Part shown: positions 5,210 to 43,345 of the stretch, one piece after another
How the letters are laid out: the number at the start of each line of letters is the position of its first letter
How positions within the stretch are numbered: position 1 is the stretch's first letter
Made by a program: the position numbers and the translations under genes
Notes under the pieces: generated by a model
Told to the model about the DNA's origin: nothing
Database searches by the model: none
The model's input: the letters and a program-made list of their open reading frames with translations, nothing else
Source: an uncultured Gammaproteobacteria bacterium
Lineage (GTDB): Bacteria; Patescibacteriota; Patescibacteriia; UBA9934; GWF2-40-263
DNA: 64,000 nt
Direction of reading: 5' to 3'
Assembly: GCA_964399675.1 (NCBI GenBank)
Contig: CAYNRK010000006.1
Location: 1,886-65,885 of the forward strand

Positions 5210-5238
5210 TTGACAAAAGTGCATTTTTGTGGTATCAT
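5210..5238 (+). promoter_or_regulatory. Sigma70-type promoter TTGACA-17-TATCAT for cassette 1
   Basis: TTGACA is at 5210-5215, the spacer is exactly 17 nt, and TATCAT is at 5233-5238. Confidence 0.5.
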
Positions 5239-5281
5239 TTTGCGTCATCCTGATTTCGATTGGGATACGCTCTGGGCCTTG

Positions 5282-5362
5282 GTCGAGCTCAACTCGACCT
5301 TGTAGCCCACTTTCCAACCGGGTCTTGTCGAGCTCAGCTCGACTCAGTGCCCCTTTCCAACA
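5282..5362 (+). promoter_or_regulatory. Two tandem copies of a hairpin-forming leader unit (GTCGAGCTCARCTCGAC + GCCCmCTTTCCAAC) in the 5' UTR of cassette 1
   Basis: Units are at 5282-5319 and 5327-5364. Each begins with a near-perfect palindrome and the second is followed by the SD AGGAGG at 5362-5367. Confidence 0.45.
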
Positions 5363-5372
5363 GGAGGAGACC

Positions 5373-6170
5373 ATGGGTCTTCGAACCAACGAGCGACTGG
5401 ATGACCTATGCACCACCGGGAGCTTGCTCTGGGAGCACGTCAAGGATCCGAGAGAGCCCGGACGAGACGGCCTGCTCAAGCGCGCGTTCCGTGTCGCGGA
5501 GTACAGGAACGTCGTGATCGAGCTGCCGGCCGGCGCCGTCGTCGAGCTGGTTGACACCGAGTTCGAGGGTGCCGGCACCTACTTCCACACCGAGGTCTTC
5601 GGAGTCAATCTGCACTTCCGGGACGGGCTCAAGCCCACGGCTGGTGAAGTCGTGATCTGCGACGTCCAGATCTACCTCGAGACCTGGGAGCCGGACTGGA
5701 GCGAGTTGAGCGAGGCCGAGCGGCGCAGGAGGCGTGGCTATCGGAACTACAAGTTCAAGCTCAACGCGACCCCGTGTGCCAAGTCGGACGCCCAGGCAAG
5801 GATGCGCTTGCACATCCGTGACGTGAACGCGGATGGCTACACGCGCATGCACAAGGACATCACAGGGGACGGAGAGCGCTTCGCGCACATGTCCCCGGAC
5901 TGGAAGCCGGACGGCTCCAAGCCCTGGGCCAGGAACCAGGACCTCCAGCTCCTGCAGATCCGGACCAAGGCCGGCAAGGGCGGTGGCAGTGGCAAGGCCG
6001 ACAAACCGGAGACCAAGGCCGGCAAGGGCAAGGGCAACGGCAAGGACAAGCCGCCGCAGAGGACCGAAGCCCAGGTCGTGCGTGAGGTCGACGGCGAGGC
6101 CAGGACGTCCATGCGCGACCTCTTGCGCAACGTCGTCCTTCCCACCACGACCACCCCCTCGGGCTCCTGA
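5373..6170 (+). CDS. Hypothetical protein, strongly GC-rich foreign gene (266 aa, Lys/Gly-rich C-terminal tail)
   Basis: ATG at 5373 lies 5 nt after AGGAGG. GC is about 65% by eye against an AT-rich host, with GC3-rich codons. The antisense ORFs here are high-GC artifacts. Confidence 0.6.
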   Translation: MGLRTNERLDDLCTTGSLLWEHVKDPREPGRDGLLKRAFRVAEYRNVVIELPAGAVVELVDTEFEGAGTYFHTEVFGVNLHFRDGLKPTAGEVVICDVQIYLETWEPDWSELSEAERRRRRGYRNYKFKLNATPCAKSDAQARMRLHIRDVNADGYTRMHKDITGDGERFAHMSPDWKPDGSKPWARNQDLQLLQIRTKAGKGGGSGKADKPETKAGKGKGNGKDKPPQRTEAQVVREVDGEARTSMRDLLRNVVLPTTTTPSGS

Positions 6171-6198
6171 GCCGCAAGGCTCTTCCCGCAAGGGATCT

Positions 6199-6247
6199 GA
6201 CGCCGCCAGCAACTCTCGCTGGCGGCGTCTTAATTTTCAAAAATTTT
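6199..6247 (+). terminator. Intrinsic terminator of cassette 1
   Basis: A perfect 12-bp stem GACGCCGCCAGC-aactctc-GCTGGCGGCGTC is followed by TTAATTTTCAAAAATTTT. Confidence 0.6.
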
Positions 6248-6252
6248 CCATC

Positions 6253-6445
6253 AACCTCCGACGAACCCCCAGGCCACCACCAACAGGTACGTTGTATAAT
6301 TTCGCCAGCACGAGCGAAGCGAGTCTGCCGAAATTATACAACGTGACTGTCCCCCATAATTCTCTACGAAGTCTGCCCGCAGCTCAGCTGCGGGCAGACT
6401 TTTCTAACCCCCCCCTTAATCCCCCCTTGAAAAGGGGGGAACTTC
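6253..6445. repeat. Family-B leader-like repeat, copy 1 (orphaned): CCTCCGACGAAC..., a long perfect hairpin ACGTTGTATAATTTCG/CGAAATTATACAACGT, and a G/C-rich distal hairpin
   Basis: It aligns with 44600-44775 and 48171-48400. On the minus strand it reads extended -10 (TTGTATAAT), hairpin, then GGAGG. Confidence 0.6.
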
Positions 6446-6447
6446 GA

Positions 6448-6975
6448 TTAAATCTTATACAAATACAAATTTGGTGAACCTTTGATCTCGTCAACTTTTA
6501 CAGAATCCCATTCAGGAATTGGCCAAACATAACTTACAACTTTGGTGCCCGGCTTTAACTCCTTTTCCAACTTTGGTTTAATTTTTTTGTAAGTTTCAGG
6601 CATTAAAAAAAGATAGACTGCTGTGTAGTCAGAAAGATCATGAGCAAATGCATTTGATAAAACTATTCTTACTTGACTATGTTTTCCAAAAAAATTCTGA
6701 AACTTTCCAATTAAAACTTGCAAAATGGAAAGCTCCACTCCGGTCGAAGCTGCGCCTGTATTTTTTGAAAGATGCCTGCAAACCCTGCCGTTTCCGCAAC
6801 CTAACTCAACAAACCGATCGTCTTTATTAAGTTCTAACAAATTCTCAATACGTTTTAAATCACGTTTCCACGTTGGCACCCATGGCGCTCCTGAAATCCC
6901 AGCGTATGCTGCTGAGATAAGTAGAATCATGAATATAACAAAAAGAAAAGTCCACATAATAAACAAGAATAACAC
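6448..6975 (-). CDS. Class I SAM-dependent methyltransferase with an N-terminal TM anchor
   Basis: It has the motif I VELGCGNG. It is a paralog of 15696-16238 and both end in LYLYKI. Confidence 0.6.
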   Translation of the reverse strand: MLFLFIMWTFLFVIFMILLISAAYAGISGAPWVPTWKRDLKRIENLLELNKDDRFVELGCGNGRVCRHLSKNTGAASTGVELSILQVLIGKFQNFFGKHSQVRIVLSNAFAHDLSDYTAVYLFLMPETYKKIKPKLEKELKPGTKVVSYVWPIPEWDSVKVDEIKGSPNLYLYKI

Positions 6976-7040
6976 AGGTTCACTTGATCGATAAGATCAT
7001 TTCGTTTATCATCTTTATCATTAAACTTAAAAATAAAATC

Positions 7041-7778
7041 ATGAAACCTTTTTTGATATTACAACTAAGACCTGAAAACCCAACATCTGATAATGAATTT
7101 GAGGCAATTGTAAATTTTAGCGGCCTTGATGAATCAGAAACTCATAGAATTAGAATGGAACAAGGTGGTCTGCCAGAAATAAATCTTAATGATTATTCTG
7201 GAATCATTGTTGGAGGCGGGCCATGGAACGTAAGCGATGATCAATCAAAAAAATCTAAAGAACAAAAAAACGCAGAAGTTTGGCTTGATAAATTAATTGA
7301 TGAAGTTATTGAAAAAGATTTTCCATTTCTTGGAGCTTGCTATGGATTTGGTGCGCTGGCCATAAAAAATAACGGCGTGGTAAATAAGGAACAATACACT
7401 GAGGAACCTAGTGCTATTGATATTACACTGACAGATGAAGCAAAAAACGACCCTTTGTTGCAAGGGCTTCCTGAAACATTTCGCGCAATGGTTGGTCACA
7501 AAGAATCTTGTCAAAAACTTCCTGAAAATGCTGTCTGGCTTGCCAGGGCTGAGGCATGTCCTTATGAAATGTTTCGTATTGGAAAAAATATTTACGCAAC
7601 GCAGTTCCATCCTGAACTAGAAACAGAGGGTTTTTGTCTTCGTGTTGAAATTTATAAAAATGCTGGCTATTTTCCACCAGAGGATGCTGAAAAATTAAAA
7701 GAAGAAGCAAGAAAAGAAAACATCATTGTGCCAATGATGCTATTAAAAAAGTTTATTGATACTTATCGATCTGAATAA
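7041..7778 (+). CDS. Class I glutamine amidotransferase-like protein
   Basis: The start is ATG at 7041 (MKPFLIL). It has the GATase1 nucleophile elbow GACYGFGA and a His later (FHPE). Confidence 0.55.
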   Translation: MKPFLILQLRPENPTSDNEFEAIVNFSGLDESETHRIRMEQGGLPEINLNDYSGIIVGGGPWNVSDDQSKKSKEQKNAEVWLDKLIDEVIEKDFPFLGACYGFGALAIKNNGVVNKEQYTEEPSAIDITLTDEAKNDPLLQGLPETFRAMVGHKESCQKLPENAVWLARAEACPYEMFRIGKNIYATQFHPELETEGFCLRVEIYKNAGYFPPEDAEKLKEEARKENIIVPMMLLKKFIDTYRSE

Positions 7779-8179
7779 TTAGAAATAAATCTAAAACAAG
7801 TTCCAATACAAATTGCTATAAGCAAAGAAATAATTGCTCTGACAACAAAAAATCTTACACTAAAATAATCTGCCTCAATAAAAAATCTTGCAGGGCCAAT
7901 AAGAGTCTGACCTGTAATAAACGCAGCAATTATACTCAATGGCATGCCTTTTTTATTAAGGTCTCTTAAAAGCGGAAGGTAAGCTAAAATTGGTCCAGGT
8001 GTTGCAACCCCAACAGCAGAAGCTTCAACAATGTTCTTTTCGTTTTCAACAAAAATTGCCTTTATCTTTTTTCTTGGCAAATAAACGCTAATAATTTGTG
8101 AAACAATAATCGCAATAATAACAACTGGCAAAATGTCAATGAAATTTTCTATTGCAGTTTTAAACAATTCAAAAATCAT
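7763..8179 (-). CDS. Putative permease, C-terminal half (polytopic membrane protein)
   Basis: It is a 138-aa hydrophobic ORF translationally coupled to 8176-8589. Confidence 0.4.
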   Translation of the reverse strand: MIFELFKTAIENFIDILPVVIIAIIVSQIISVYLPRKKIKAIFVENEKNIVEASAVGVATPGPILAYLPLLRDLNKKGMPLSIIAAFITGQTLIGPARFFIEADYFSVRFFVVRAIISLLIAICIGTCFRFISNYSDR

Positions 8180-8589
8180 AAAAACATTTCAAGTAAGAAA
8201 CCACCAAGGGTTATGAAAATCACACTAAGAATCATTCTGGTGCTGTAAAATTTAATTCCAAAATATTTAATTTCCGCAATATCTCTAATAACAGACTCGC
8301 TAATTGTTTCTCCTGCAATCAATGCAAAAACAACTCCAAAAGAAGCCCCCTTTAAAAACAAAGCGTATGCAATTGGATATGTAACATATCTTGGAATTGG
8401 AAGAACTACTCCCAAAAACGCTGCTATTGGAATTGCAATCCAAACACTATTTCCAAGCAATATGTTCAAAGAACCTTCAGGTAAATATATTTCGATAATT
8501 GCCCCAGCAAAAACTGCAACAAAAAATATGGGCAAAATAAAACCCAATTCTTTTATGGACCCTGTTGCAATTGCTTTGACTTTACTCAT
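8176..8589 (-). CDS. Putative permease, N-terminal half (polytopic membrane protein)
   Basis: It is hydrophobic throughout (137 aa). It overlaps the next ORF by 4 nt (ATGA), which suggests a two-part permease or a split gene. Confidence 0.4.
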   Translation of the reverse strand: MSKVKAIATGSIKELGFILPIFFVAVFAGAIIEIYLPEGSLNILLGNSVWIAIPIAAFLGVVLPIPRYVTYPIAYALFLKGASFGVVFALIAGETISESVIRDIAEIKYFGIKFYSTRMILSVIFITLGGFLLEMFL

Positions 8590-8607
8590 TAAACCATTAT
8601 ATCAAAT

Positions 8608-9615
8608 TTAATAATCTAGACCTTCTCTAGCCTTCACCCCTGAATAAAAATAATGATTTCGAAGTTTCATTTCAGTAACAAGATGAGCTGCATCTAAAAA
8701 CTCTTGCGGAGCATTGCGGCCGGTCATAATAAGCTCGGTTGTTTTTGGTTTAAGAGAAAGGATTTCTAACACTTCTTTAACTGACAGCATATTGAGATCT
8801 GTTGTTGAATTGATTTCGTCCATAATCACAAGATCATAATTTTGTTCAAACATTTTTTTGACTTCTTCCAGTCCCCGCCTTGCTTCTGCTTTATCAATGT
8901 CCTGAATTGAAAAATCAAACCTGCCGGTTTTTGGATCAATTCTGTCGCGGCCGGTTGCCAAATAATCAATTTTATTTTTTTCTAAAGCACTGCGCTCTGA
9001 GTAATGCGCTTCCCCACCCTTATCAAAATATACGATCCCAACTTTCTTTCCCGCACCTGTTGCGCGAATTGCTGTTCCCAAACTAGCAGTTGTTTTTCCT
9101 TTTCCATTTCCAGTATAAATTTGAATTAATCCGTAACCTTTGTGGCCTTTTATTGATTCTCCGGAACTTATTAACAAACCTTCACTCTCCTGAATTTTTC
9201 TTGCTGCTCGTGCGGGTTTCTCCTGAATGTCATCAGGTAAAGGCTTGCGAAGATCGATCCAGGTAAATTCATTGTGCTCGTGCGACAACTTAACCTCAAC
9301 ATCCTGAATTGGAAGAACGTAAAAAATTCCAATGATTGGTTCGTTTTCAACATCACCCTTAACTCCCCAAAGATCCACATGAACCGGTCTTGCATTTGTT
9401 GGATCGATTGTAATTCCAGTTTCCTCAAAGACTTCACGTTTCAGACAATCTCCTGGTTTTTCACTTTTGTCCATACGCCCGCCAGGCAATGTCCATTCTT
9501 TTGTCCGCCAATGCACACCTTCCCCACTTTCACGAATAAACAAAACTTTTCCTTGCGGATTCATTAGCAGTACTTTATTAGCAACGTATTTTTTTTCCAT
9601 ATATTTCTTTTGCAA
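8608..9615 (-). CDS. Fusion protein: N-terminal NUDIX hydrolase plus C-terminal cob(I)alamin adenosyltransferase (CobA/CobO/BtuR family)
   Basis: The Nudix box is GGRMDKSEKPGDCLKREVFEETGI. The C-terminal half has the P-loop GNGKGKTTASLG and a VIMDEI...MTGR architecture typical of CobA/CobO. Confidence 0.6.
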   Translation of the reverse strand: MQKKYMEKKYVANKVLLMNPQGKVLFIRESGEGVHWRTKEWTLPGGRMDKSEKPGDCLKREVFEETGITIDPTNARPVHVDLWGVKGDVENEPIIGIFYVLPIQDVEVKLSHEHNEFTWIDLRKPLPDDIQEKPARAARKIQESEGLLISSGESIKGHKGYGLIQIYTGNGKGKTTASLGTAIRATGAGKKVGIVYFDKGGEAHYSERSALEKNKIDYLATGRDRIDPKTGRFDFSIQDIDKAEARRGLEEVKKMFEQNYDLVIMDEINSTTDLNMLSVKEVLEILSLKPKTTELIMTGRNAPQEFLDAAHLVTEMKLRNHYFYSGVKAREGLDY

Positions 9616-9680
9616 AGTGTAGCAAAAAACAAGCTTAAATTAAATCCACAACCACAATCTAATCTTACATACCAAATCAC

Positions 9681-14822: not shown

Positions 14823-14872
14823 CGCACCACTACATGTTGTGGTCTAAGTTAATTGTATACCACTATATATTG
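14823..14872. promoter_or_regulatory. Two NrdR-box-like palindromes (CACCACTACATGTTGTGG and ACCACTATATATTGTGTG), centres about 32 bp apart, upstream of nrdJ
   Basis: They match the NrdR box consensus acaCwAtATaTwGtgt and the characteristic tandem spacing of about three helical turns. They lie 155-200 bp upstream of the nrdJ start. Confidence 0.5.
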
Positions 14873-14924
14873 TGTGTCAAAGAAATGGCTTATCCACAGT
14901 TTTTTGCGACACTTGGCACTCGAA

Positions 14925-15503
14925 CTAGAAACCCATGGTCAAATTGATGTTTGGTTTCTCTTGTTGTTTTAGCTCAAAATCCACTGGAATAGCTCGACGC
15001 CCACCCAATCTATCATTGTAAGCCAGCGCCTTATACTTAAGTCCGTATTCATAGACATCACGAGTTGCACGCACGTCTTCTATACAATAATCCTTGATCT
15101 TTTGAATCTCACCTTGCTTCCACCACTCAACAGCCATTAGCCCATGAGCGGTCTTCCCTTTCCCAACCGTTGCCTTGGCAACATCATCAAGCTTTAATCG
15201 AAATCCAAGAGCCTTATGAATTTCCGCCAAAATATCCAGGTTTGGAAAGGTTAGAAAATCACCACTGTAATAATTATTCATGATTGGAAGATCAAAATGG
15301 ATTTGGTTGTATCCGATAATCCGATCAGCGTGTTCTAGCCGTGGCCATAAATCTGGCAGCTCGTGAACTTCAAAAGCTTCAAAAGTATCAGTCTCATAAA
15401 AATAACAGCCGATCACTGATATCTTCAAAGCTTTTAAGTTAAAACCTCCAACATCGTTGAAGGTATTTTGTGTTTCAATATCTAGAACAACCTCTTTTTT
15501 CAT
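14925..15503 (-). CDS. DEDDy-type 3'-5' exonuclease (DnaQ/RNase D-like fold)
   Basis: I chose the start at ATG 15503 (MKKEVVLDIETQ). The Exo I motif is LDIET, Exo II is GYNQIHFDLPI and Exo III is YCIEDVRATRDVY. The ORF-track extension comes from MITE copy 2. Confidence 0.6.
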   Translation of the reverse strand: MKKEVVLDIETQNTFNDVGGFNLKALKISVIGCYFYETDTFEAFEVHELPDLWPRLEHADRIIGYNQIHFDLPIMNNYYSGDFLTFPNLDILAEIHKALGFRLKLDDVAKATVGKGKTAHGLMAVEWWKQGEIQKIKDYCIEDVRATRDVYEYGLKYKALAYNDRLGGRRAIPVDFELKQQEKPNINLTMGF

Positions 15504-15516
15504 AACCACAATATTA

Positions 15517-15677
15517 GAGACTGTTGGAATACTCCAGTGCGAGATCAAAGTGAGAAATTTTTTTCAGAAATAGTTTCAGGACGACGAGACGATATGGACA
15601 TATCGTTGAGGAATCATGAAACTATTTCTGGGAAAAATAGCCGCTTTGGAGCCGTGCTGGAGTATTTCAACGGTCTC
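15517..15677. mobile_element. Family-C MITE-like element, copy 2
   Basis: It is near-identical to 4393-4544, including the TIRs GAGACTGTTGGAATACTCCAG / CTGGAGTATTTCAACGGTCTC. Confidence 0.65.
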
Positions 15678-23467: not shown

Positions 23468-23496
23468 TTGACAAAAACCAAATTTTTATGTAATTT
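23468..23496 (+). promoter_or_regulatory. Sigma70-type promoter TTGACA-17-TAATTT
   Basis: The -35 is a perfect consensus and the spacer is 17 nt. It is followed by AAAAGGGG and the ATG at 23530. Confidence 0.5.
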
Positions 23497-23529
23497 TCTC
23501 TTGTTCTTCCAGAACAAAAGGGGTACAGG

Positions 23530-23736
23530 ATGTTGGATCTCACGCTTGGACAAACACACCGTCTCCAGCACATGGGCCAGAACGCAGTAATGGCCGCAGT
23601 CGAAGGACTTGGTCTTCAAAGGAGAGATGTTGACCTCCTCTTCATCACAGACCAGCTTCAACAACTTCTCAACGACGCAGTGCTTGGTGTGGTAACGCAA
23701 GCCGTTCGCCAGTCTCTGCCTGACGCTCCGAGGTAG
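23530..23736 (+). CDS. Small hypothetical protein (68 aa) with moderately elevated GC
   Basis: The ORF has its own promoter and a weak SD. Its composition is higher in GC than the flanks and I recognise no motif. Confidence 0.35.
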   Translation: MLDLTLGQTHRLQHMGQNAVMAAVEGLGLQRRDVDLLFITDQLQQLLNDAVLGVVTQAVRQSLPDAPR

Positions 23737-23828
23737 TTCGCCTGAACAACCTCATTTTCTTTTTAACCAACCAGACTAGACAAAAAAAATCAAAATTGTT
23801 ATAGTTCCTGCGCATTAAACTTACACCT

Positions 23829-24108: not shown

Positions 24109-25210
24109 CCTTTACCAATCCTTCCAATCCATCCTTTTTTTCAGCTGAAATCCAAATGTGATCTTGATCAAACAATTTTTCATCAATTCTCTTCATGTCT
24201 TTTTTAGAAATCTGATCAATCTTATTTAAAACTAAAAGCTGTGGCTTTTCATTAATTCCCAACTTTTCCAAAATATCATCCACTACTTTCATTTGTTGAA
24301 ACATATGCTCGTCTGAGGCATCAACAACATGAAGCAAAATATTAGCCTCAACAGACTCGGACAAAGTTGATGCAAACGCTTTTAAAAGTTCAGGTGGAAG
24401 TTGTTTTATAAATCCAATTGTGTCTGAAACAAGACATGTTTTTCTTTTCCCTGGCAAAAATAATTCGCCAACGCGAGTATCAAGCGTTGCAAACAATTCA
24501 TCTGCCACGTATTCCTTGCGTCCAGTAAGTGAATTGAGCAAAGTTGTTTTTCCAGCATTGGTGTACCCAACAATTGCAACTGTTTTTAAATTTCTTCTTG
24601 TTCGAGAATCACGCTGCAGCTTTCGACCCTTTTCATACTTTTCCAATTTCTTTTTGATCTTTCGTTCTTTTTCTTTTAAGTGACGTTTCATTCGCTCAAC
24701 GTTTGTCTCACCAACCCCAACTGTTCCAATTCCACCGGCTTGACGCGAAAGCTCCATTCCCATACCAAAAATTCGTGGGCCCATGTGACGAATACTTGCA
24801 AGTTCAATCTCTAGCTTTGCTTCAGTGGTTTGTGCATGCTTTGCAAAAATTTTTAAAATAAGATCAATCCTGTCCCAAACCTGAATGTTAACTTTTCCAA
24901 GCACTTCTGAGAGCTCATAAACTTGCCTGGGTTTTAAACGATCATTAATAATCAAAAGCGACACCCCCTTTTCCTCTCCTTCTTCTGCAAGCTCGTGCAC
25001 CTTTCCGGTTCCAATAAATGTTCTCGGATGTGGTGCAAAACGTTTCTGCCATTTTTTAACAATCACAATTCCGCCGTAAGTATTTACAAGTTCTTCAAGT
25101 TCAAGCATCCGATCCATTGCATGCTCCTTTAACATGCGTGGATGAATGAGATCGATTAGAATGGCTTTTTGTTCTTTCTTCATGAAAGAATCATAGCATA
25201 AAAGAAACAT
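24089..25210 (-). CDS. hflX: GTPase HflX
   Basis: It has the G1 motif GYTNAGKTTLLN, G3 DTIGFI and G4 NKID, with an N-terminal HflX-type domain. An alternative start is MKKEQK at 25183. Confidence 0.7.
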   Translation of the reverse strand: MFLLCYDSFMKKEQKAILIDLIHPRMLKEHAMDRMLELEELVNTYGGIVIVKKWQKRFAPHPRTFIGTGKVHELAEEGEEKGVSLLIINDRLKPRQVYELSEVLGKVNIQVWDRIDLILKIFAKHAQTTEAKLEIELASIRHMGPRIFGMGMELSRQAGGIGTVGVGETNVERMKRHLKEKERKIKKKLEKYEKGRKLQRDSRTRRNLKTVAIVGYTNAGKTTLLNSLTGRKEYVADELFATLDTRVGELFLPGKRKTCLVSDTIGFIKQLPPELLKAFASTLSESVEANILLHVVDASDEHMFQQMKVVDDILEKLGINEKPQLLVLNKIDQISKKDMKRIDEKLFDQDHIWISAEKKDGLEGLVKEIENTL

Positions 25211-25263
25211 CCGCCGTCGCTCCGTTGGAGCTATGGCGGACAGGCCCGACCAGAAGGCCAGGC

Positions 25264-25638
25264 TTAGAAAGAGTCGGGGTTGGCGAGAATTCTGAGATTC
25301 CCCAAAAGAGGAGTATAGAGCTGTCGGACTGAATCTGGTTCCAAAGTCCGATGCACTTCACCTACGCACACCATCTCGAGAAGGTTCACTCTTCCCGAGC
25401 TGTCACGGACCAAGGTTGCTGCTGTGTCGTAGTCCTTGCGTTCCACAAGGTAGCGCAGTGCGTACCAGACAAAGCTGATCTCGCCAAGCAGCAGAACCCT
25501 GTGCGCAGGCTCGAGCCTTGGGGCTTTGCTTTTCGATGCGGCGAGAAGCGAGTGGTCGAGAACCTGTCCAGGTTCCTTTTCCAGGATTTGCATCACGTCT
25601 CGAAGGGTTTCTGCTGTGACCTTATCTTGATGACTCAT
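25264..25638 (-). CDS. Hypothetical protein (124 aa), GC-elevated cassette 3
   Basis: ATG at 25638 lies 5 nt after GGAG. It has its own promoter and terminator. GC is about 54% by eye against about 38% in the flanks. Confidence 0.5.
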   Translation of the reverse strand: MSHQDKVTAETLRDVMQILEKEPGQVLDHSLLAASKSKAPRLEPAHRVLLLGEISFVWYALRYLVERKDYDTAATLVRDSSGRVNLLEMVCVGEVHRTLEPDSVRQLYTPLLGNLRILANPDSF

Positions 25639-25668
25639 CACAACTCCGGTTGCATTCAACAAGAAAAG

Positions 25669-25697
25669 AGGTTACATGAAAAATCTCTTTGTGTCAA
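25669..25697 (-). promoter_or_regulatory. Promoter TTGACA-17-TAACCT (minus strand) for cassette 3
   Basis: The reverse complement of 25692-25697 is TTGACA. The spacer is exactly 17 nt and the -10 is TAACCT. Confidence 0.45.
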
Positions 25698-30952: not shown

Positions 30953-30981
30953 TTGACGCAATCAAGAAAATAAATTACTCT
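30953..30981 (+). promoter_or_regulatory. Candidate promoter TTGACG-17-TACTCT for cassette 4
   Basis: The -35 is near-consensus and the spacer is 17 nt. A second TTGACG lies at 30921. Confidence 0.3.
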
Positions 30982-31019
30982 TCTTTTCTGACGGACTGGC
31001 TGTCACCACGGAGGAACTC

Positions 31020-31634
31020 ATGACTGTCTGGATCTCGCTCGAAGAAGCAAGAAAAAGGCTTGGCGATGACGTTGTCATCTGCCTGGAGCCCGAAGGAGTG
31101 CCTGACATCGAGGATGAAGGGAGACCTGAAAGAAAGAGCCTGGCTGACAAGCTTCCTGGGCTCTGGGTGTTCGATCCGAGAACGGGTCGGATCCAGCGCG
31201 GAGACGGCAAGTTCCACGCAGCCGGAGTGGTCAAGCACCCGGGCGGCTGGAACCTGGCCGCGGTCATCGAGGAGCCGAGCGTGGAACCGCCCGAAGAGGG
31301 TCCACACGTAGTCGGTCACGTGATCGTGGAGGTCAACCCGCGTGGGTTCGTGCGCAGACGGCTGGGCAAAGGCCTCAGCGGCGCGATCCACGAGCTCATG
31401 CCAAGCTCGATCAGCAAGGGCGAAGGTGCTGGTGAGGAGGAAGAACCGGTCGGCTACTTCGAGGCCAACTGCCAGCGCATCTGCGGCTCGATCGCGGTGT
31501 ATCTGCGTGAGGTCGACTTCCCGGACGACGAAGGCATGACTCCGGAGAGGTTCCGGAAGTGCTCCGAGGACGGACGTTCGCTCAGCGCGCTCGCAGTCGC
31601 TGGTCTGCTGCACGGGAGCCCTGTCACGGGCTAG
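31020..31634 (+). CDS. Hypothetical protein (204 aa), GC-rich cassette 4
   Basis: ATG lies 5 nt after GGAGGA. Codons are GC3-rich (about 65% GC by eye). The antisense 221-aa ORF is a GC artifact. Confidence 0.55.
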   Translation: MTVWISLEEARKRLGDDVVICLEPEGVPDIEDEGRPERKSLADKLPGLWVFDPRTGRIQRGDGKFHAAGVVKHPGGWNLAAVIEEPSVEPPEEGPHVVGHVIVEVNPRGFVRRRLGKGLSGAIHELMPSSISKGEGAGEEEEPVGYFEANCQRICGSIAVYLREVDFPDDEGMTPERFRKCSEDGRSLSALAVAGLLHGSPVTG

Positions 31635-31663
31635 AAACACTCGACACTCAACATCTCTCTCCT

Positions 31664-31691
31664 ACGGGCTTCCCCAGCCCGTTTTCATTTT
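31664..31691 (+). terminator. Intrinsic terminator of cassette 4
   Basis: ACGGGC-ttcccca-GCCCGT is followed by TTTCATTTT. Confidence 0.5.
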
Positions 31692-31815
31692 GAAAATTGA
31701 ACCAGGTGCATAAGCATCAAAAATAACTGTCACCAAATAGATCCATAATTTACATTACAAAAGAAGCTGGCGAGCAAAGAATTCTGTGCACAAACAAAAA
31801 CAACCCTTTCGGAAC

Positions 31816-32386: not shown

Positions 32387-32530
32387 TCTCTGAAACAGTG
32401 TGGGAAGAGCTAAACGAAAAACTCCCCACCACTACTAATGGAAGGGAGTATTTATTATAATTACATATTAGCAATTTTTTTTGAATCTGTCAATGTGTAT
32501 GACAACTAATTTTCATAAAAAAACAAAATT

Positions 32531-32567
32531 CAGATAACAAGAAAACCACCAGGACAATACCTTGGTG
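32531..32567 (-). terminator. Intrinsic terminator of cassette 5 (minus strand)
   Basis: The stem CCACCAAGG/CCTGGTGG is followed by TTTTCTTGTT on the minus strand. Confidence 0.45.
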
Positions 32568-32581
32568 GCCGTACGTCTTGC

Positions 32582-33307
32582 TCAGACGAGCAAGGACATG
32601 ACTGCGCGCATGTGACCGCTGAGAAAGCCAGCTGCCCTTGCTTCGCGCAGGACACTGCGAGTGATCCAGGCGAAGTTCTCGGGCTGACCGGTCTTTTTGA
32701 CTTCTTGGTTGACCAGACCCTCATCAGCCACACGAATGTGTCCGTACTTGTTGACCTTTTCGAAGTGTCGACCCCCGTCTTCGACTGCGTCCTCCCAGGC
32801 AATATGCGACGCCCATCCCACCTTCTGTGGAGATAGAACCAGGTCAGCAAACGGAACAGGCTTGATGGGCCGACCTCCACGATCCAGCTCCCCTTGCAGT
32901 GCCTTGCGATGATGATCCAGATTGGATTGTGAGAACTGCACTGGTGGGGCAACAAGGACTCGTGTGTTGCGACCTTGGGGCACTTCGATTCCAATGTTGC
33001 CTGGCTCAGCAAGCATGCGCACAAGGATCCTGTTGGGCTCGTGCACGATCAAGGCAACGAACCCCTTTCCAACCGTGAAAAGCATGGGCTGCTTCCAGCT
33101 CGCAACCTCTCGACCGGCCGCACCGGCGATCCTTACACCACGCACGCTGTAGAAGCGTCCATCAGGACGCATGAGCCCGGCGTCGGAAACCTTCCAGTCT
33201 GGCCTGAGCCACGAAATGGAGCATTCTTCCGACGCCATTGCCAGCGCATCCGCACGCTTATGAGCGAAAGTGAAAAAAGACGGCATATTGGTAAAGGTCT
33301 TAACCAT
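32582..33307 (-). CDS. Hypothetical protein (241 aa), GC-rich cassette 5
   Basis: ATG at 33307 lies 8 nt after AAGGAGA. GC is about 62% by eye. It is inserted within the dTDP-sugar gene cluster. Confidence 0.55.
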   Translation of the reverse strand: MVKTFTNMPSFFTFAHKRADALAMASEECSISWLRPDWKVSDAGLMRPDGRFYSVRGVRIAGAAGREVASWKQPMLFTVGKGFVALIVHEPNRILVRMLAEPGNIGIEVPQGRNTRVLVAPPVQFSQSNLDHHRKALQGELDRGGRPIKPVPFADLVLSPQKVGWASHIAWEDAVEDGGRHFEKVNKYGHIRVADEGLVNQEVKKTGQPENFAWITRSVLREARAAGFLSGHMRAVMSLLV

Positions 33308-33333
33308 GATCACTGTCTCCTTGCTGAAAAGAA

Positions 33334-33362
33334 AAATTAGCAGTCTTTATCAAAATTGTCAA
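33334..33362 (-). promoter_or_regulatory. Promoter TTGACA-17-TAATTT (minus strand) for cassette 5
   Basis: The reverse complement of 33357-33362 is TTGACA. The spacer is 17 nt and the -10 TAATTT is identical to the -10 at 23491. Confidence 0.5.
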
Positions 33363-36398: not shown

Positions 36399-36516
36399 TG
36401 GATCGCTTCTGGATCGCTACCCGGTAGTCTGGATCGCTACCCGGTAGTCTGGATCGCTACCCGGTAGCGGTTTAAGCCTTTAAAAATGGGCCCAGACCGC
36501 TATCGGGTAGCGATTC
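36399..36516. repeat. Three perfect tandem copies of the 20-bp unit TGGATCGCTACCCGGTAGTC (the last copy ends in CG) plus one inverted partner (CTATCGGGTAGCGATT); each unit contains the near-palindrome GCTACCCGGTAGC
   Basis: I read the direct repeats at 36410-36469, the partial unit at 36400 and the inverted copy at 36500-36516. The array lies in the HIT gene's upstream region. Confidence 0.6.
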
Positions 36517-36518
36517 TT

Positions 36519-38299: not shown

Positions 38300-39870
38300 T
38301 TCTTAAATAGTTTATAAAGGGATTCTTTATCAAATGTTTTTTCTTTTTTGATTTGTAATCCAAGCTTTTTTAATTTTCTTTGATTCAAGTACTCCAAATC
38401 TTCGTCTGGAAAAGTTATTCCATAATAATAAAGTGAATGTGATTCAACAATAGCCGGCATAAGAGAATAGGTTTGATCTGATCGAAGTGGATACAAAACA
38501 TTTCTGTATGGGAAAAAGAGTTTGTCTGATCGATCAACAATAATTATTGAATCATTGGGTGTTTGTGCAAGAATCTCATTACGAATCTCTTTTGATGCTT
38601 GGAGTGTTTTTGAAACACGAATCAATCCATCTTGCCCAGCAGAAAACGTTGCAAAAACATTTAAGCAAAAAACCGCTGCAAGAATGGCGATAAGAACCGG
38701 TGTGTGGAAAGTTTTTCTTTGAGCTTGTTGAGAAATCCAAACAAGCGCATATGCAATAAATGGAATTGAGAAGATATAAAGTGGAAGCCAGTAACGGACA
38801 TAAGAATTTGCAATGGTGATTTGGGTTGGATCAGGATTATCAAAAAAGACCCAGCTTCCATAAAACAAAACCAACCAAACACACGCAGCTGTTCCAATCA
38901 AGAAAAATAACCATCGATGAACACGTTTCTTTTTTTCCTTTTGTTGCAAAAAAACTGAAACACCCACAAGAGCCAAAAGAGACAGCCACCAAAAAAGCAC
39001 AAAGCCATAATTTCTAAAATGTTGTTTGGCTATGCGAGGGTGAAGCCCGAACGGGAATAAACTCGAGCTTTGGTCAACAAGTTCTTCTGTTGTGCTTGCT
39101 ACCGAATCCTCAATAGTGTAGCCGCTATTGAAAATCCCGTTAAAGGTTACTTGATTGAAAAAAAGAATAATGGCAACACCCAAAACTAAACCAATGATTG
39201 CTTGCGTAACATTTTTTCGATTCCAATACTTGTAAAACAGCAAAGCTATTATGAACGTTGCAGGAAGCACCCATAATGCTTCTGAAGTTCTGACAAAAAT
39301 AGACAAACCAATAAACAGTCCGCCCAGAAAGAAATTCTTTCTATGTTCAACAAAGAAAAAATAGAGGGCAATCACGAGCAAGCAGACAAACAAAACATTA
39401 TGCATTAACCCGCGGGCACTGTAATACCAAATCGCAGGATGAAACAAAAAAAGAAGTGAGCTTACAAATGCAACATCTTTTTTAAACCAAACCTCCATTA
39501 ATCGATAAAAAAGCCATGCTGTTGCAATAACAATAAGCGGCGTTAAGATAGCAAGAATAGATGATCCGAAAATTGAAGCTATAACACCATATAAAACAGG
39601 TAGCCCCAAAAAACTTCCCGGCAACAACTTCCCTTCATATGAGACAACACTGCGAGGACGAATTGCGTTATCAAAATATTCGTTAATGGGTGAAGAGGCC
39701 TGAAGCGATCCGGTCTCTGCAAATTGTTTTGCAAAAAAAGCATTGGCGGTTTCATCCGGAGAAATGTAGATGTTTCCATTTTGCGCAAGAATTAAAGAGC
39801 TGATAAAAAATACAACCGCACAAGCGGCAAAAATCCATATTCTTTGTTTGTTCATTTTTTTAAGCACCAT
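38296..39870 (-). CDS. GT-C fold membrane glycosyltransferase (ArnT/PMT-like)
   Basis: It has 11 or more predicted TM helices. An N-terminal SPDET (DE-type) loop motif is present and the layout is ArnT-like. Confidence 0.5.
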   Translation of the reverse strand: MVLKKMNKQRIWIFAACAVVFFISSLILAQNGNIYISPDETANAFFAKQFAETGSLQASSPINEYFDNAIRPRSVVSYEGKLLPGSFLGLPVLYGVIASIFGSSILAILTPLIVIATAWLFYRLMEVWFKKDVAFVSSLLFLFHPAIWYYSARGLMHNVLFVCLLVIALYFFFVEHRKNFFLGGLFIGLSIFVRTSEALWVLPATFIIALLFYKYWNRKNVTQAIIGLVLGVAIILFFNQVTFNGIFNSGYTIEDSVASTTEELVDQSSSLFPFGLHPRIAKQHFRNYGFVLFWWLSLLALVGVSVFLQQKEKKKRVHRWLFFLIGTAACVWLVLFYGSWVFFDNPDPTQITIANSYVRYWLPLYIFSIPFIAYALVWISQQAQRKTFHTPVLIAILAAVFCLNVFATFSAGQDGLIRVSKTLQASKEIRNEILAQTPNDSIIIVDRSDKLFFPYRNVLYPLRSDQTYSLMPAIVESHSLYYYGITFPDEDLEYLNQRKLKKLGLQIKKEKTFDKESLYKLFKK

Positions 39871-40438
39871 AAGTGAACAAACTAATTACTGCCATCACAA
39901 CAGCAATCGATAGCGTGCCGATCGAAATTGGAATAAATAAATCAAGTCCAGCCCACAGCGCAATAAGCAGAAGACACACGCCAAGGACTTGCAAAAACAT
40001 TTTTGTTTTTCCAAAAACATTTGCGCTGATTTTTTTTCCTTCCAATCGTTGAAAGTATGCACCAAGAATAATCAATGACTCAACAATAATTATCACTAAA
40101 CCAAAAATTACGTTTACATACTTAGTGACAACAATAAGTACAACCAGTCCAATAAATAATTTGTCAGCGATTGGGTCATACAATGTACCCCAATCTGTAA
40201 TCTGTTTTCTAAGACGCGCAAGCGAACCATCAATCGCGTCTGTAAACGCGATTAGAATAAAAATCGGTATTCCAATTCCAAACTGTTCGGTCATCAAAAA
40301 CCACATCACTATTGGCACGCACAGCATGCGAAATATAGTGATCATGTTTGGCGTAATGAATTTTGGAATCAGCGGAATGATCGTATACCGCATGATGTGA
40401 TCATGCGGATAGAGCTTGTATGGATCTCGCTGCTTCAT
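39860..40438 (-). CDS. CDP-alcohol phosphatidyltransferase family protein
   Basis: The signature D-x2-DG-x2-AR...G-x3-D-x3-D is present as DAIDGSLARL...GTLYDPIADK. Confidence 0.65.
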   Translation of the reverse strand: MKQRDPYKLYPHDHIMRYTIIPLIPKFITPNMITIFRMLCVPIVMWFLMTEQFGIGIPIFILIAFTDAIDGSLARLRKQITDWGTLYDPIADKLFIGLVVLIVVTKYVNVIFGLVIIIVESLIILGAYFQRLEGKKISANVFGKTKMFLQVLGVCLLLIALWAGLDLFIPISIGTLSIAVVMAVISLFTYGA

Positions 40439-40471
40439 ACTGTGCTACAATAATTAACGAAATATTCTTTT

Positions 40472-42583
40472 ATGCGAGTTCTCTCTTCAGCCTACTTTAC
40501 CACTTCCTCTGTGCTTTTCCTAGCGCTTTTTGTTTTAAATACTTTTGTTTGGAAAAATCCATGGGCGGGTATTATTCTGTTGATTTTTTTCTTTATTAGG
40601 TACGGTTCGCTTGTTGGAAAACAATTAAGCCCGGATGAACCCTCTGCGCACTGGTGGCTTGGATCATTTATAATTTTGTCATGCGTAAGCATTTTTGGAT
40701 CTTTGGCATATTATATTTGGAGCATGCCTGCTGCCCTATTCCAAATTCTTGCAATTCTCATTATCGGATTTGCGCATTTAAAAACCAAACACCATATAAA
40801 AAATCCGTTCCGTCATGTTCATAAACTTTTTAAAATAAAAGAGCACAAACTCCCTCAAGCAACATTGATATCCTCGGCCATTATTTTATTTCTGGTCTTT
40901 TTTATTTTACTTTACCTTGGAGATCACCAAATCGTTGATGCAGTACGATCACAATGGGAACGCATGGACTCTTCTCTTTTCTTGCTAATGGGATTGAGTC
41001 TGTTTTTGTTATTTGGCCTACTAATGCGAGGCAAAGAAAAATCAATGGTTCTTGTGTTGGTGTCTGTTGTTTTGTTTGCTTTTGTTTCTGTTGCTGCAAT
41101 AGCTTTTCCAATCGGTTTTGGATTTGACACATTTATTCATGAAGCAACGGTTACTCACATTGCAGAATTTGGCACAATCAGCCCAAAGCCATTTTATTAT
41201 ATTGGCCAATATTCAATTGTACTTTTTTTGCATCACGCATTTTCCTTACCACTTGAAATCATCAATACTTATCTTGTTCCGGTATTAACCGCCTTATTTC
41301 TCCCATCTGTTTGGTTCTTTGCTGCTGCGCACATGCTTAAGAAAAAACAAGATGCAATGGCAACGCTCATGGGGCTGTTCCTTTTACCGCTTTCGCTTTT
41401 TATAATTTCAACACCTCAAGCGCTTGCCAACCTTTGGATCTTGCTCACAATCCTTATGAGCATTCCGATCTTGTTGGGCAAACCTGTTCTTAAAAGGCTG
41501 TGGCTTATTGTTCCGGTATTAAGCGCGCTGTTCATCCACCCAATCGCCGGGATTCCGATTGTCTTGTATGTTACATTATTATTTTTACATCCTGAAGATC
41601 AGCCCACGCAATGGAAACAAAAAGCTAAAACATTATTCTGGCTTATTGCAGCTTTGGCAGCAATAGTTTTACCACTCAGCTTTCTTGTAAACTCAGTCCT
41701 TGCCGGAAACGGACCTTCTCTTGATCTGTCTGGATTTAGCTTTTCTAGTATTTTGAATCTTAATATCTTTTTTGAAAATCGATTTAATCCAATTCTTGAT
41801 TTTGTTTATTTGTATGGTTTTAATGCATCGCTCATTCTCTTTTTGATTGCCGGCTTTGCATGGTTTGAATATAAAAAAGATCTGCCTCAACGATTTTCCA
41901 TAACACTAATTATGGCAGCTGCGCTGTTGGTGAACTTCATTCTGATGAAAACAATTGTAGACTTTTCATTTTTGATTGATTACGAACGCCTTAACTATGC
42001 AAACCGTTTGGTGCCCTTGATGATCTTTTTCCTTGTGCCGTATCTGCTTCTTGGATTTGGACATTTTGTAATGAACATTCGATCGCGTCCAATAGCGATC
42101 AAAGCGTTTTCAATTGTGCTCTTAGCAACAATTGGCACAAGTGCGTTTTATCTTGCTTATCCACGTCGCGATGCATATGCAACAAGTCATGGATTCAATG
42201 TTGGCCAGGCTGATATTAAAACGGTTCATGAAATTGAAAACTGGTCTAATAATGAACCATATCTTGTTCTTGCCAATCAATCTGTTTCTGCAGCAGCAAT
42301 ATCGGAAATTGATTTTCGTTACTATAACAATCTGTTTTTCTATCCAATACCAACCGGCGGTGATCTTTATCAAAAATTTTTGAGCATGAATGATCATCCT
42401 ACACGCGACATAGCAAAAGAAGCTCTGAAGCTTGTGCCAATGCACGGAGATGTAAATATGCTTTACTATGTTGTAAACACCTACTGGTGGCAAGCGCCCA
42501 GAATAATTGAAACAGCAAAAACAACCGCCAATGAATGGCGGTCGGTTGATAATGTTGTTTTTATCTTCCGTTACGATTTTTAA
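40472..42583 (+). CDS. Large polytopic membrane protein (703 aa), possibly a GT-C-like glycosyltransferase or polymerase
   Basis: It has many TM helices over the first about 560 aa and a soluble C-terminal domain. Confidence 0.4.
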   Translation: MRVLSSAYFTTSSVLFLALFVLNTFVWKNPWAGIILLIFFFIRYGSLVGKQLSPDEPSAHWWLGSFIILSCVSIFGSLAYYIWSMPAALFQILAILIIGFAHLKTKHHIKNPFRHVHKLFKIKEHKLPQATLISSAIILFLVFFILLYLGDHQIVDAVRSQWERMDSSLFLLMGLSLFLLFGLLMRGKEKSMVLVLVSVVLFAFVSVAAIAFPIGFGFDTFIHEATVTHIAEFGTISPKPFYYIGQYSIVLFLHHAFSLPLEIINTYLVPVLTALFLPSVWFFAAAHMLKKKQDAMATLMGLFLLPLSLFIISTPQALANLWILLTILMSIPILLGKPVLKRLWLIVPVLSALFIHPIAGIPIVLYVTLLFLHPEDQPTQWKQKAKTLFWLIAALAAIVLPLSFLVNSVLAGNGPSLDLSGFSFSSILNLNIFFENRFNPILDFVYLYGFNASLILFLIAGFAWFEYKKDLPQRFSITLIMAAALLVNFILMKTIVDFSFLIDYERLNYANRLVPLMIFFLVPYLLLGFGHFVMNIRSRPIAIKAFSIVLLATIGTSAFYLAYPRRDAYATSHGFNVGQADIKTVHEIENWSNNEPYLVLANQSVSAAAISEIDFRYYNNLFFYPIPTGGDLYQKFLSMNDHPTRDIAKEALKLVPMHGDVNMLYYVVNTYWWQAPRIIETAKTTANEWRSVDNVVFIFRYDF

Positions 42584-42587
42584 GTAG

Positions 42588-42636
42588 CAAGACTATTTTC
42601 CGACGATCGTCGGAAAATAGTCTTGTTTTTGTTTTG
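42588..42636 (+). terminator. Intrinsic terminator with a perfect 17-bp stem (CAAGACTATTTTCCGACGA/TCGTCGGAAAATAGTCTTG)
   Basis: It is followed by TTTTTGTTTTG. Confidence 0.65.
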
Positions 42637-42671
42637 CAAAAGCTCGGCCACGTCGCTCAAGAGCGACGTGG

Positions 42672-42700
42672 TTGACAATTTGAGGTTTTCAAGACATAAT
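42672..42700 (+). promoter_or_regulatory. Promoter TTGACA-17-CATAAT for cassette 6, preceded by the hairpin CCACGTCGCTC-aaga-GCGACGTGG
   Basis: The -35 is a perfect consensus, the spacer is 17 nt, and the hairpin abuts the -35. Confidence 0.45.
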
Positions 42701-42745
42701 CAATCGTCACAAAAACGTGGCAAAAGTGAGAAAGGAGGGCTTGTT

Positions 42746-43345
42746 GTGAGCCAGTTCTTTTCAGTGGCCGCGAACGTTTTGATCGTCGTGGTCATGGTGA
42801 TCTACTTCAAACAGGTTGTGAAAGGGGTTTCAGTCCCGAACCCATCGGCCTGGCTTATCTGGATCATCATTGGGCTCATGAATATGGTGAGCTACTTCCT
42901 GGTCGTGCGCGGTGATCTGTGGCAATCGTTGATCACCATTGTTACCTTCGCAGGTTTCATATTCATCTTTGTTTATGCCACAGTGAAAGGAAAATTCGCC
43001 GGCTTTAGCAAAGCGGACATGTTCTATTTCATCCCGGCTCTTGTGGTCGGAGTGATATGGCAGACAACCGGCAATGCAGATCTTGCAAACATCAGTTTGC
43101 AAATCGTGTACCTCCTCTCTTACCTCCCGATCGTACACGGACTACTCAGTCATAGACTCCGCGAAAAGTCACTGCCCTGGAATCTGGCGTCGATATCCTA
43201 CTGCCTGATGATTCTGGCCATTGTGACCGCTGACTCCTGGCGCTGGATTGCGCTCGTCCATCCAATTGCCAATGGAATCGTCGGAAACGGCAGCGTTATC
43301 CTGGCCATCCATCTGCAAGCACGAAAAACTCGGAAGGCAAAGTAA
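42746..43345 (+). CDS. Hypothetical 6-TM membrane protein (199 aa), GC-elevated cassette 6
   Basis: The GTG start lies 7 nt after AAGGAGG. GC is about 52% by eye. Confidence 0.45.
   Translation: MSQFFSVAANVLIVVVMVIYFKQVVKGVSVPNPSAWLIWIIIGLMNMVSYFLVVRGDLWQSLITIVTFAGFIFIFVYATVKGKFAGFSKADMFYFIPALVVGVIWQTTGNADLANISLQIVYLLSYLPIVHGLLSHRLREKSLPWNLASISYCLMILAIVTADSWRWIALVHPIANGIVGNGSVILAIHLQARKTRKAK

Follow-up and report, generated by a model that had tools for sequence, protein, structure and literature searches.

A 64,000-nucleotide (nt) stretch of DNA from an uncultured bacterium (GenBank assembly GCA_964399675.1, contig CAYNRK010000006.1, positions 1,886 to 65,885; hereafter, the window) contains six single-gene units, here called cassettes 1 to 6, whose guanine-plus-cytosine (GC) content stands far above that of the genes around them. 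Our analysis points, on balance, to native-style monocistronic accessory genes, three of them old residents of their positions, that are held GC-rich by a persistent fixation bias favoring G and C. Judged by comparison with relatives, cassettes 1, 4, and 5 have long occupied fixed syntenic slots, are vertically inherited, and evolve fast; on the same grounds, the GC excess is a long-lived property of the gene class and not the fading mark of a recent import. The six genes had been picked out in an earlier note on the window, which took them for acquired, phage-moron-like units.

Anatomy and Composition of the Six Cassettes

The open reading frames (ORFs) named in the earlier note are all present, at 5373-6170 (+), 23530-23736 (+), 25264-25638 (-), 31020-31634 (+), 32582-33307 (-), and 42746-43345 (+), and each belongs to what is, as read from the sequence, a self-contained unit of promoter, Shine-Dalgarno (SD) sequence, coding sequence (CDS), and terminator. 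Direct reading confirmed that five of the six have a perfect TTGACA with a 17-nt spacer, the -35 elements lying at 5210, 23468, 25697 (-), 33362 (-), and 42672, and that cassette 4 has only TTGACG-17-TACTCT (30953-30981). The -10 hexamers of cassettes 2, 3, and 5 agree with TATAAT at only 3/6 positions. Within the window, the pattern TTGACA-N17-TANNNT was observed seven times compared with 1.07 expected, a count that none of 100 shuffles reached, and four of these sites belong to cassettes. The other three include native genes, namely the class II ribonucleotide reductase (RNR; promoter at 14852-14880, with 11/12 consensus matches) and a PaaX_M gene (promoter at 32465-32493). Because these two genes use the same promoter motif, the cassette promoters are of the host's own type.

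An SD sequence is present in all six cassettes, compared with an SD of at least four nucleotides in only 9 of 51 host ORFs, whose starts were taken from the longest ORF. Clear intrinsic terminators with a T-run close five units (6199-6229, 25209-25241 (-), 31664-31682, 32546-32568 (-), and 43358-43387), and that of cassette 2 is weak, as had been described. Host genes are indeed tightly packed, with a median intergenic gap of 16.5 nt and mostly weak or no SD sequences.

The contrast in composition that the earlier note had reported was borne out by computed values. The GC contents of cassettes 1 to 6 are 0.653, 0.541, 0.531, 0.631, 0.566, and 0.502, compared with 0.386 for the host (standard deviation 0.028, 51 ORFs), which corresponds to z-scores of +4.1 to +9.5. 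GC at third codon positions (GC3) reaches 0.88, 0.54, 0.58, 0.74, 0.61, and 0.64, compared with 0.31 for the host (standard deviation 0.05), and with an index resembling the codon adaptation index, trained on host genes, the cassettes score z = -3.9 to -7.9. Codons ending in G or C (GAG, AAG, CAG, CCG, GGC) are enriched throughout, and the excess covers all three codon positions as well as the untranslated regions (UTRs). Along each unit, GC is 0.20-0.34 in the promoter, 0.44-0.61 in the 5'UTR, 0.50-0.65 in the CDS, and 0.56-0.71 in the 3'UTR plus terminator; in the 100 nt after the terminator it is 0.20-0.36, except at cassette 1, where a repeat element follows. Composition thus changes at the predicted transcript start, and the GC-rich domain coincides with the predicted transcript. 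The motif CAACTCG, spotted in several UTRs and terminators, was not enriched (8 observed compared with 6.1 expected).

The Window as a Chromosome Segment of Uhrbacteria

The RNR of the window is 62-77% identical to that of about 55 metagenome-assembled genomes (MAGs) labeled Candidatus Uhrbacteria or Patescibacteria, and 15-20 genes around it are collinear with Uhrbacteria MAG chromosomes. By these comparisons, the window is therefore a chromosome segment, of approximately 38.6% GC, from an uncultured Uhrbacterium (Patescibacteria) of the candidate phyla radiation (CPR), and a phage genome is ruled out. Its large ORFs encode PBP2, class II RNR, HflX, a CtpA-type S41 protease, an NTP-transferase, several glycosyltransferases, and subtilases; L28, HU, flavokinase, and NUDIX genes lie between them, and a MurE-like gene is also among the neighbors of the cassettes. 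The sequence recurs at 99.1-100% identity in independent JGI, ENA, and Logan assemblies, so that the cassette junctions are real and not an assembly artifact. The direction of replication was deduced solely from gene-strand bias and GC skew.

Phage morons are autonomous promoter-gene-terminator units between conserved phage genes and have been described for lambdoid phages. Like morons, the cassettes are single genes with their own promoter and terminator (weak in cassette 2) and are compositionally distinct from their neighbors, and cassettes 3 and 6 are present or absent between otherwise collinear genomes. Unlike morons, the cassettes stand among housekeeping genes in a CPR chromosome, three of them are syntenic orthologues across genera, and their compositional offset is inherited and persistent. 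A megablast of the window against phage records gave no match, PHROGs returned only two chance-level matches, and scans of viral contigs for relatives of cassettes 1, 3, 4, and 6 were empty. In view of the housekeeping context, the lack of phage matches, and the GC excess shared by syntenic orthologues, we do not retain the moron interpretation. The idea that the cassettes are acquired genes holds in a weaker form for cassettes 3 and 6, and probably 2, for which presence and absence were found at the same junction, and does not hold for cassettes 1, 4, and 5, for which conserved, vertically inherited orthologues were found in relatives in the same slot and with the same build.

Known mobile or artificial arrangements were considered as well. 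Integron gene cassettes were rejected, as a promoter belongs to every unit and the six are spread across 38 kb with no 3' repeat in common; no flanking repeat family, shared 3' repeat, or attC-like site was found in the window. An engineered construct or marker gene was likewise rejected, because the translations match no resistance or reporter genes and the same junctions occur in many environmental assemblies. No transfer RNA (tRNA) genes were found in the window, no integrase or transposase Pfam domains adjoin the cassettes, and a PADLOC scan for defense systems gave nothing. Rfam gave nothing at gathering level in the window, with chance-level matches only around cassette 1. An NCBIfam scan of the cassette proteins and a genome scan with a PEGA protein also returned nothing.

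Syntenic Residents: Cassettes 5, 4, and 1

Cassette 5 (32540-33362, minus strand) is the best documented. Its promoter (33362-33334, TTGACA-17-TAATTT) starts directly past the terminator of the upstream RmlD-like gene and is followed by the SD sequence AAGGAG, a CDS at 33307-32582 (241 amino acids (aa), GC 0.57) with one Hexose_dehydrat/EvaA-like domain, and a terminator at 32568-32546 with a T-run. The protein matches PF03559 with 67.5 bits (gathering cut-off 25), and its family profile matches EvaA (PDB 4j7g) with an E value of 7.8e-23. Like NDP-hexose 2,3-dehydratases, it carries PF03559 and is encoded beside NTP-transferase, 4,6-dehydratase-like, and RmlD-like genes; unlike EvaA, a tandem two-domain protein of 471 aa, it has a single domain. 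We predict it to be an EvaA-like, half-size NDP-hexose 2,3-dehydratase-like protein of a deoxysugar pathway, which makes it the only cassette with a placeable function. Cassettes 1, 3, and 4 have no match in Pfam, NCBIfam, PHROGs, or PADLOC.

The closest relatives of cassette 5, at 38-52% identity, are in Uhrbacteria. At least 10 Uhrbacteria-like contigs carry an orthologue, and its place in a conserved nucleotide-sugar (deoxysugar) cluster never varies: the RmlD-like gene lies on one side and the NTP-transferase gene on the other. Every orthologue keeps a TTGACA/T promoter (16-17-nt spacer), an SD sequence, and a terminator. At several of these loci, L098 (upstream of 10001), L100, L102, and L104, the -35 TTGACA lies inside the loop and stem of the upstream terminator hairpin (GGGTTGACACCC, then a T-run), so that the terminator and the cassette 5 promoter overlap.

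Cassette 4 (30953-31692, plus strand) consists of the promoter given above, the SD sequence GGAGGA, a CDS at 31020-31634 (204 aa, GC 0.63, GC3 0.74), and a terminator at 31664-31682 with a T-run. Its orthologues at L097:10840-11394 (57% identity, GC 0.68 compared with 0.51 for the genome) and L098:11692-12249 (54% identity, GC 0.50 compared with 0.39) both adjoin the NTP-transferase gene, and the gene is absent from L100. These identities agree with the species tree, as L097 and L098 share 0.63 with each other and 0.55-0.58 with the window. A structure prediction from the single sequence had a predicted local distance difference test (pLDDT) score of 36, too poor for a fold search. Right after the terminator, 37 nt (31689-31725) match an internal part of the PBP2 gene (2238-2274) at 92% identity, perhaps as filler DNA or as a piece of a gene left at an old junction.

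Cassette 1 (5210-6239, plus strand) begins with a promoter at 5210-5238 (TTGACA-17-TATCAT, with an extended TG), followed by the SD sequence AGGAGGAG, a CDS at 5373-6170 (265 aa, GC 0.65, GC3 0.88) encoding a tail rich in Lys and Gly, and a terminator at 6199-6229 with a T-run. A word-indexed search of 5.8 billion proteins gave no relative, and the alignment of cassette 1 in a first metagenome scan gave nothing. By tblastn, an orthologue was found in the Uhrbacteria MAG bin41o (L067:15518-16159; 33% identity, E = 3e-33). It lies between the same two neighbors and on the strand opposite to them, as in the window, and it comes with a promoter (TTGACA-17-TATATT), some 100 nt of leader, an SD sequence, and a terminator of its own; its GC is 0.43 and its GC3 0.37, compared with 0.33 and 0.22. 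Several assemblies annotate an antisense ORF of 268 aa at cassette 1, and the plus-strand assignment is backed by the L067 orthologue. The profiles of the cassette 1 and cassette 4 families gave no match against PDB sequences.

The leader of cassette 1 (5239-5372, 134 nt) is GC-rich and structured, with two similar hairpins: it contains a nearly identical pair of units, in each of which CCxCTTTCCAAC follows a GTCGAGCTCARCTCGAC hairpin, and its folding beats that of all 200 shuffles (z = -3.1). A long hairpin leader is also present in the L067 orthologue, and the element may act as a cis-regulator. The slot of cassette 1 holds unrelated opposite-strand ORFs of elevated GC in two further Uhrbacteria, L039 (15092-16225, 377 aa) and L042 (15219-16046, 275 aa); in the loci compared, it behaves as a hotspot for opposite-strand, GC-elevated genes.

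Persistence of the GC Excess and Horizontal Transfer

One explanation of such composition is recent horizontal gene transfer: the cassettes would be moron-like islets from GC-rich donors, with promoter and terminator brought along or captured, that still carry un-ameliorated donor GC. We consider this origin rather unlikely. It agrees with the strongly atypical GC, GC3, and codon usage of the cassettes, with their ORFan-like proteins, and with the cases in which a slot is empty in all relatives examined or a homologue has a different gene context (see below). As a rule, mobile DNA and genes that are acquired or ORFan are richer in AT than the host. The cassettes resemble acquired ORFans and genomic islets in being short, mostly family-less, fast-evolving, patchy, and compositionally atypical; unlike these, they are GC-richer than the host, they are without mobility genes, tRNA targets, or flanking repeats, and orthologues at fixed positions keep their offset across very different GC contents. 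The promoters of the cassettes are AT-rich and of the kind that the host uses, and it is at the predicted transcript start that composition changes. Homologues were found only in Uhrbacteria-like or unassigned metagenomic sequences, and no donor emerged from searches of limited sensitivity, in which cassettes 2 and 4 stayed outside the large databases.

Recent transfer is also opposed by the finding that cassettes 1, 4, and 5 are syntenic, diverge in step with their flanks, and are GC-elevated in GC-rich genomes as in the others. Among 14 close members of the cassette 5 family, 13 exceed the remainder of their contig in GC, GC-rich hosts included (for example, 0.69 compared with 0.57), and 23 distant family members from other taxa have essentially no GC offset. 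The GC3 of cassette 5 exceeds the median GC3 of neighboring ORFs in 13/13 genomes (logit offset 0.39-1.70) and tracks the background GC3 (r = 0.84). GC-elevated orthologues span genomes of 0.35-0.57 GC. The background GC3 of L097 and L098 differs by about 0.25, and the orthologues of both cassette 4 and cassette 5 are offset in each; a shift of this size implies that synonymous sites have largely been rewritten since the split, and a relic of one ancient import should therefore have decayed by now. Independent re-imports would each need a donor GC-richer than the host and would still have to leave the phylogeny congruent.

The divergence of cassette 5 is also informative. Its pairwise identity correlates with that of the flanks (r = 0.84) but is far lower, for example, 0.80 compared with 0.96-0.98. 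In the youngest clade, its third positions change at the same rate as those of the flanks, whereas positions 1 and 2 change 3-4 times faster, which argues for a weakly constrained protein that is neither hypermutating nor imported.

Lineage-Specific Gains: Cassettes 3 and 6, and Probably 2

Cassettes 3 and 6, and probably cassette 2, were gained in this lineage, because their slots are empty in every relative examined; cassettes 3 and 6 are, by this comparison, lineage-specific gains of whole promoter-to-terminator units, and cassette 2 probably is so too. Cassette 2 (23468-23764, plus strand) has a promoter at 23468-23496 (TTGACA-17-TAATTT), an SD-like GGGG, an ORF at 23530-23736 (68 aa, GC 0.54), and a weak stem with a T-run. 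Its coding status is doubtful, because GC at first codon positions (0.75) exceeds GC3 (0.54) and no homologue was found in searches that, for this cassette, left out the large protein databases. The slot, from L28 to the next gene, is about 135 bp long in L012/L097.

Cassette 3 (25209-25697, minus strand) lies immediately past the HU terminator and before the start of HflX. It has a promoter at 25697-25669 (TTGACA-17-TAACCT), the SD sequence GGAG, a CDS at 25638-25264 (124 aa, GC 0.53), and a terminator at about 25241-25209 abutting the HflX start. In nine fetched loci (L067, L012/L097, L021, L022, L098, L104, L110, L115), HflX follows HU with no gene between them, and the HU terminator was confirmed in those loci where the spacer was read. 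The family of cassette 3 comprises few homologues of 104-126 aa, and residues 36-74 or so also match repeat units of long proteins. Between the HU terminator and HflX, two relatives (L098:17400-17520 and L104:14300-14420) carry an extra GC-rich segment of some 110 nt that contains a long stem (CCGTGTTGTACCATG...CATGGTGCAACACGG); this segment is absent from the window and other relatives and could be a small structured RNA.

Cassette 6 (42672-43398, plus strand) has a promoter at 42672-42700 (TTGACA-17-CATAAT), the SD sequence AAGGAGGG, a GTG start, a CDS at 42746-43345 (199 aa, GC 0.50, GC3 0.64), and a terminator at 43358-43387 with a T-run, and it borders the nucleotide-sugar/glycosyltransferase cluster to which cassette 5 belongs. 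With approximately six hydrophobic helices, its product is the six-helix membrane protein that had been recognized before; two PQ-loop-like halves were seen by eye and Pfam gives no support for them, and a structure prediction from three sequences had a pLDDT of 48, too poor for a fold search. The slot, between a gene for a 703-aa protein and a GT4 gene, is empty in L097, L098, and L100. The sole homologue, P0026 (59% identity), lies in L177 between different genes and has the same build and a recognizably related 5'UTR; its GC is 0.54 and its GC3 0.74, compared with 0.41-0.44 for its flanks.

GC-Elevated Genes across Other Uhrbacteria

We surveyed 27 other low-GC Uhrbacteria loci with 458 ORFs, of which 33 were GC-elevated. 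A TTGAC[AT]-16/18-TAnnnT promoter was found upstream of 36% of these compared with 6% of the others (p = 1e-6), and 58% compared with 16% lay on the minority strand, strand calls in GC-rich DNA being error-prone. Their flanking gaps were wider (66 nt compared with 11 nt), and they were short, with a median of 178 aa compared with 268 aa in a first tally that included the window. Only about one-quarter carried a Pfam family, and the families were unrelated (GNAT, cation efflux, sigma-70 region 4, Usp, and others). We tentatively propose, as a possibility we would not yet bet on, that Uhrbacteria, and perhaps other CPR bacteria, possess a genome-wide class (about 7% of ORFs) of autonomously transcribed, SD-led, fast-evolving small genes, often head-on to the operons around them, that would be kept as stable single-gene GC islands by a gene-specific, G/C-favoring process such as biased gene conversion or repair at hotspots, or selection on transcripts.

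Candidate Causes of the GC Excess

Composition might be driven by expression, if the cassettes were the most strongly expressed monocistronic genes and selection for translation, or for mRNA level or stability, favored G and C. The consensus promoters and SD sequences, the match between the GC-rich domain and the predicted transcript, and the promoter enrichment of GC-elevated ORFs across the group fit this explanation, and the native HU and L28 genes are also raised in GC3 (0.49 and 0.43 compared with 0.31 for the host). Raghavan, Kelkar, and Ochman (PNAS 2012) are said to have found that GC-rich gene versions express more. The explanation nevertheless appears improbable. HU and L28 favor A-ending codons (GAA, CAA, CCA, TCA, CGA; a small reference set of 174 codons), and since the cassettes prefer G/C-ending codons and their proteins evolve fast, with non-synonymous change 3-4 times that of neighbors where highly expressed proteins normally evolve slowly, we rejected native-type translational selection as unlikely. 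The RNR and PaaX_M genes are equally well promoted, and their GC3 is an ordinary 0.29-0.30. Selection for extra mRNA structure was rejected as well, because folding relative to synonymous shuffles is no stronger in cassettes (z = -1.7) than in host genes (z = -1.2).

Conflict between transcription and replication, by which head-on, strongly transcribed units would gather a different spectrum of mutation or repair, is suggested by the strand distribution: four of the six cassettes are on the minority strand compared with 6/51 host genes (p = 0.007), the other loci show the same tendency, and the opposite orientation is kept in the orthologues of cassettes 1 and 4. We nonetheless give this cause very little weight. 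Cassettes 3 and 5 are co-oriented with their neighbors, and cassette 5 is the one with the best-documented persistent excess; the third-position substitution rate is not raised; and the strand calls of GC-rich ORFs are error-prone and the replication direction is only deduced. C is the commonest third-position base on the coding strand of the cassettes and is not depleted, so that a deamination-type signature of transcription is absent.

With translational selection, mRNA structure, and deamination set aside, a fixation bias toward G and C remains, and a persistent bias at the cassette loci is the mechanism we favor. The GC excess scales with genome GC plus a positive offset. An upstream terminator would shield each unit from nearby operons, a sigma-70-type promoter of the organism's own kind (TTGACA/17 nt/TAnnnT) would drive its transcription, a strong SD sequence, absent from most native genes, would serve its translation, and an intrinsic terminator would end the transcript. 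The likeliest form of the bias would be GC-biased gene conversion, or repair, at recombination-prone accessory loci, since accessory, fast-evolving loci are plausible targets of recombination. Recombining bacterial genes raise GC3 via non-optimal, GC-ending codons (Lassalle et al. 2015, PMC4450053), and the cassettes resemble such genes in that their GC3 is raised via GC-ending codons that are not translationally preferred and in their fast evolution. Unlike in that model, the cassette offset is confined to single transcription units, and the association with promoter, SD sequence, and minority strand is foreign to it. A close alternative form would be selection for GC-rich transcripts, which is contradicted by the fast protein evolution and by the unremarkable composition of other genes with strong promoters. 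A GC-rich, structured mRNA would in turn require a strong SD sequence in an organism that otherwise mostly starts translation without it.

Several observations weigh against a persistent fixation bias at native-style genes. Polarized singletons gave 39 changes from G/C to A/T and 39 in the reverse direction among three ingroup taxa; among five taxa, they gave 37 compared with 25 over all positions, a slight excess toward A/T that would suit imported genes and does not differ from the flank process (p = 0.34), both tests being underpowered. As these counts give no decision, the case for persistence rests on the comparative pattern. There is no direct sign of recombination or of a bias from A/T to G/C, the available strains being clonal with 0 single-nucleotide polymorphisms in the cassettes. 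The published effect of GC-biased gene conversion is reportedly much smaller than the offsets seen here, and that of cassette 1 (GC3 +0.57) lies far above it. The link with promoter, SD sequence, and transcript boundary fits an expression-linked cause more naturally than gene conversion. The GC-elevated ORFs of relatives, mostly Pfam-less and without assigned function, also have the look of an imported accessory pool, and for cassettes 2, 3, and 6, which have no syntenic orthologue, ordinary horizontal transfer suffices.

Other Elements in the Window and Its Relatives

Three copies of a GC-rich intergenic element of 150-250 nt lie at 6225-6440, 44573-44790, and 48144-48425, read on the minus strand. 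In each, a G+C-rich hairpin precedes TGTATAAT, which lies within a 20-nt inverted repeat (ACGTTGTATAATTTCGGCAG ... CTGGCGAAATTATACAACGT) and is followed by GGAGG and ATG. Copies 2 and 3 stand directly upstream of minus-strand genes, the GT4 gene and 47494-48159, respectively, which gives the element the look of a promoter/operator or 5' leader shared between genes. After copy 1 there is no more than a 4-codon ORF, and this copy meets the terminator of cassette 1 head-on; many assemblies break there. No copy turned up in other Uhrbacteria loci, and no Rfam family matches the element.

Two minus-strand genes that otherwise differ, 3175-4482 and 14925-15548, share a direct repeat of 161 nt (92% identity; 4393-4553 and 15517-15677) over their 5' ends and the sequence upstream; it may be a shared promoter/signal-peptide region or a gene-conversion tract. 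A perfect tandem repeat of 3 x 20 nt (TCTGGATCGCTACCCGGTAG) lies at 36408-36467, between a HIT-family gene and the next gene. The 36-nt palindrome TGTACATTATTTTCTCATATGGGAAAATAATGTACA occurs three times, at 49562-49597, 50136-50171, and 50674-50709, between consecutive small minus-strand genes, where it could serve as a terminator-like or operator-like site. Tandem paralogous proteins with subtilase and FG-GAP repeats are encoded at 50749-52824 and 52825-54837, with internal repeats of about 150-nt period. Strains differ in the region around the NUDIX/CobA-like gene (window 8608-9615): L092 (JGI Ga0117917_1000253), a strain variant of the window species, matches the window only to approximately 11.0 kb and carries an ISL3-family transposase (L092:1-738) about 0.7 kb past that gene.

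Implications

A single gene of atypical GC is usually read as a product of horizontal transfer. Here, at least three of six seemingly foreign cassettes are, by the comparisons above, conserved, syntenic, and vertically inherited, and their GC excess endures across genomes whose GC has drifted by 20 points. The analysis also sets out how promoters, SD sequences, and terminators are built in an uncultured phylum, and the fast-evolving genes, some of them in a surface-glycan cluster, are candidates for interaction with hosts or phages. If the class proposed above is genome-wide, a single-gene GC anomaly would be no marker of horizontal transfer in these genomes, and composition-based calls of such transfer in CPR genomes would warrant caution. 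The cassettes would then offer a tractable natural system for asking what lifts GC against AT-biased mutation, gene conversion or selection on transcripts.

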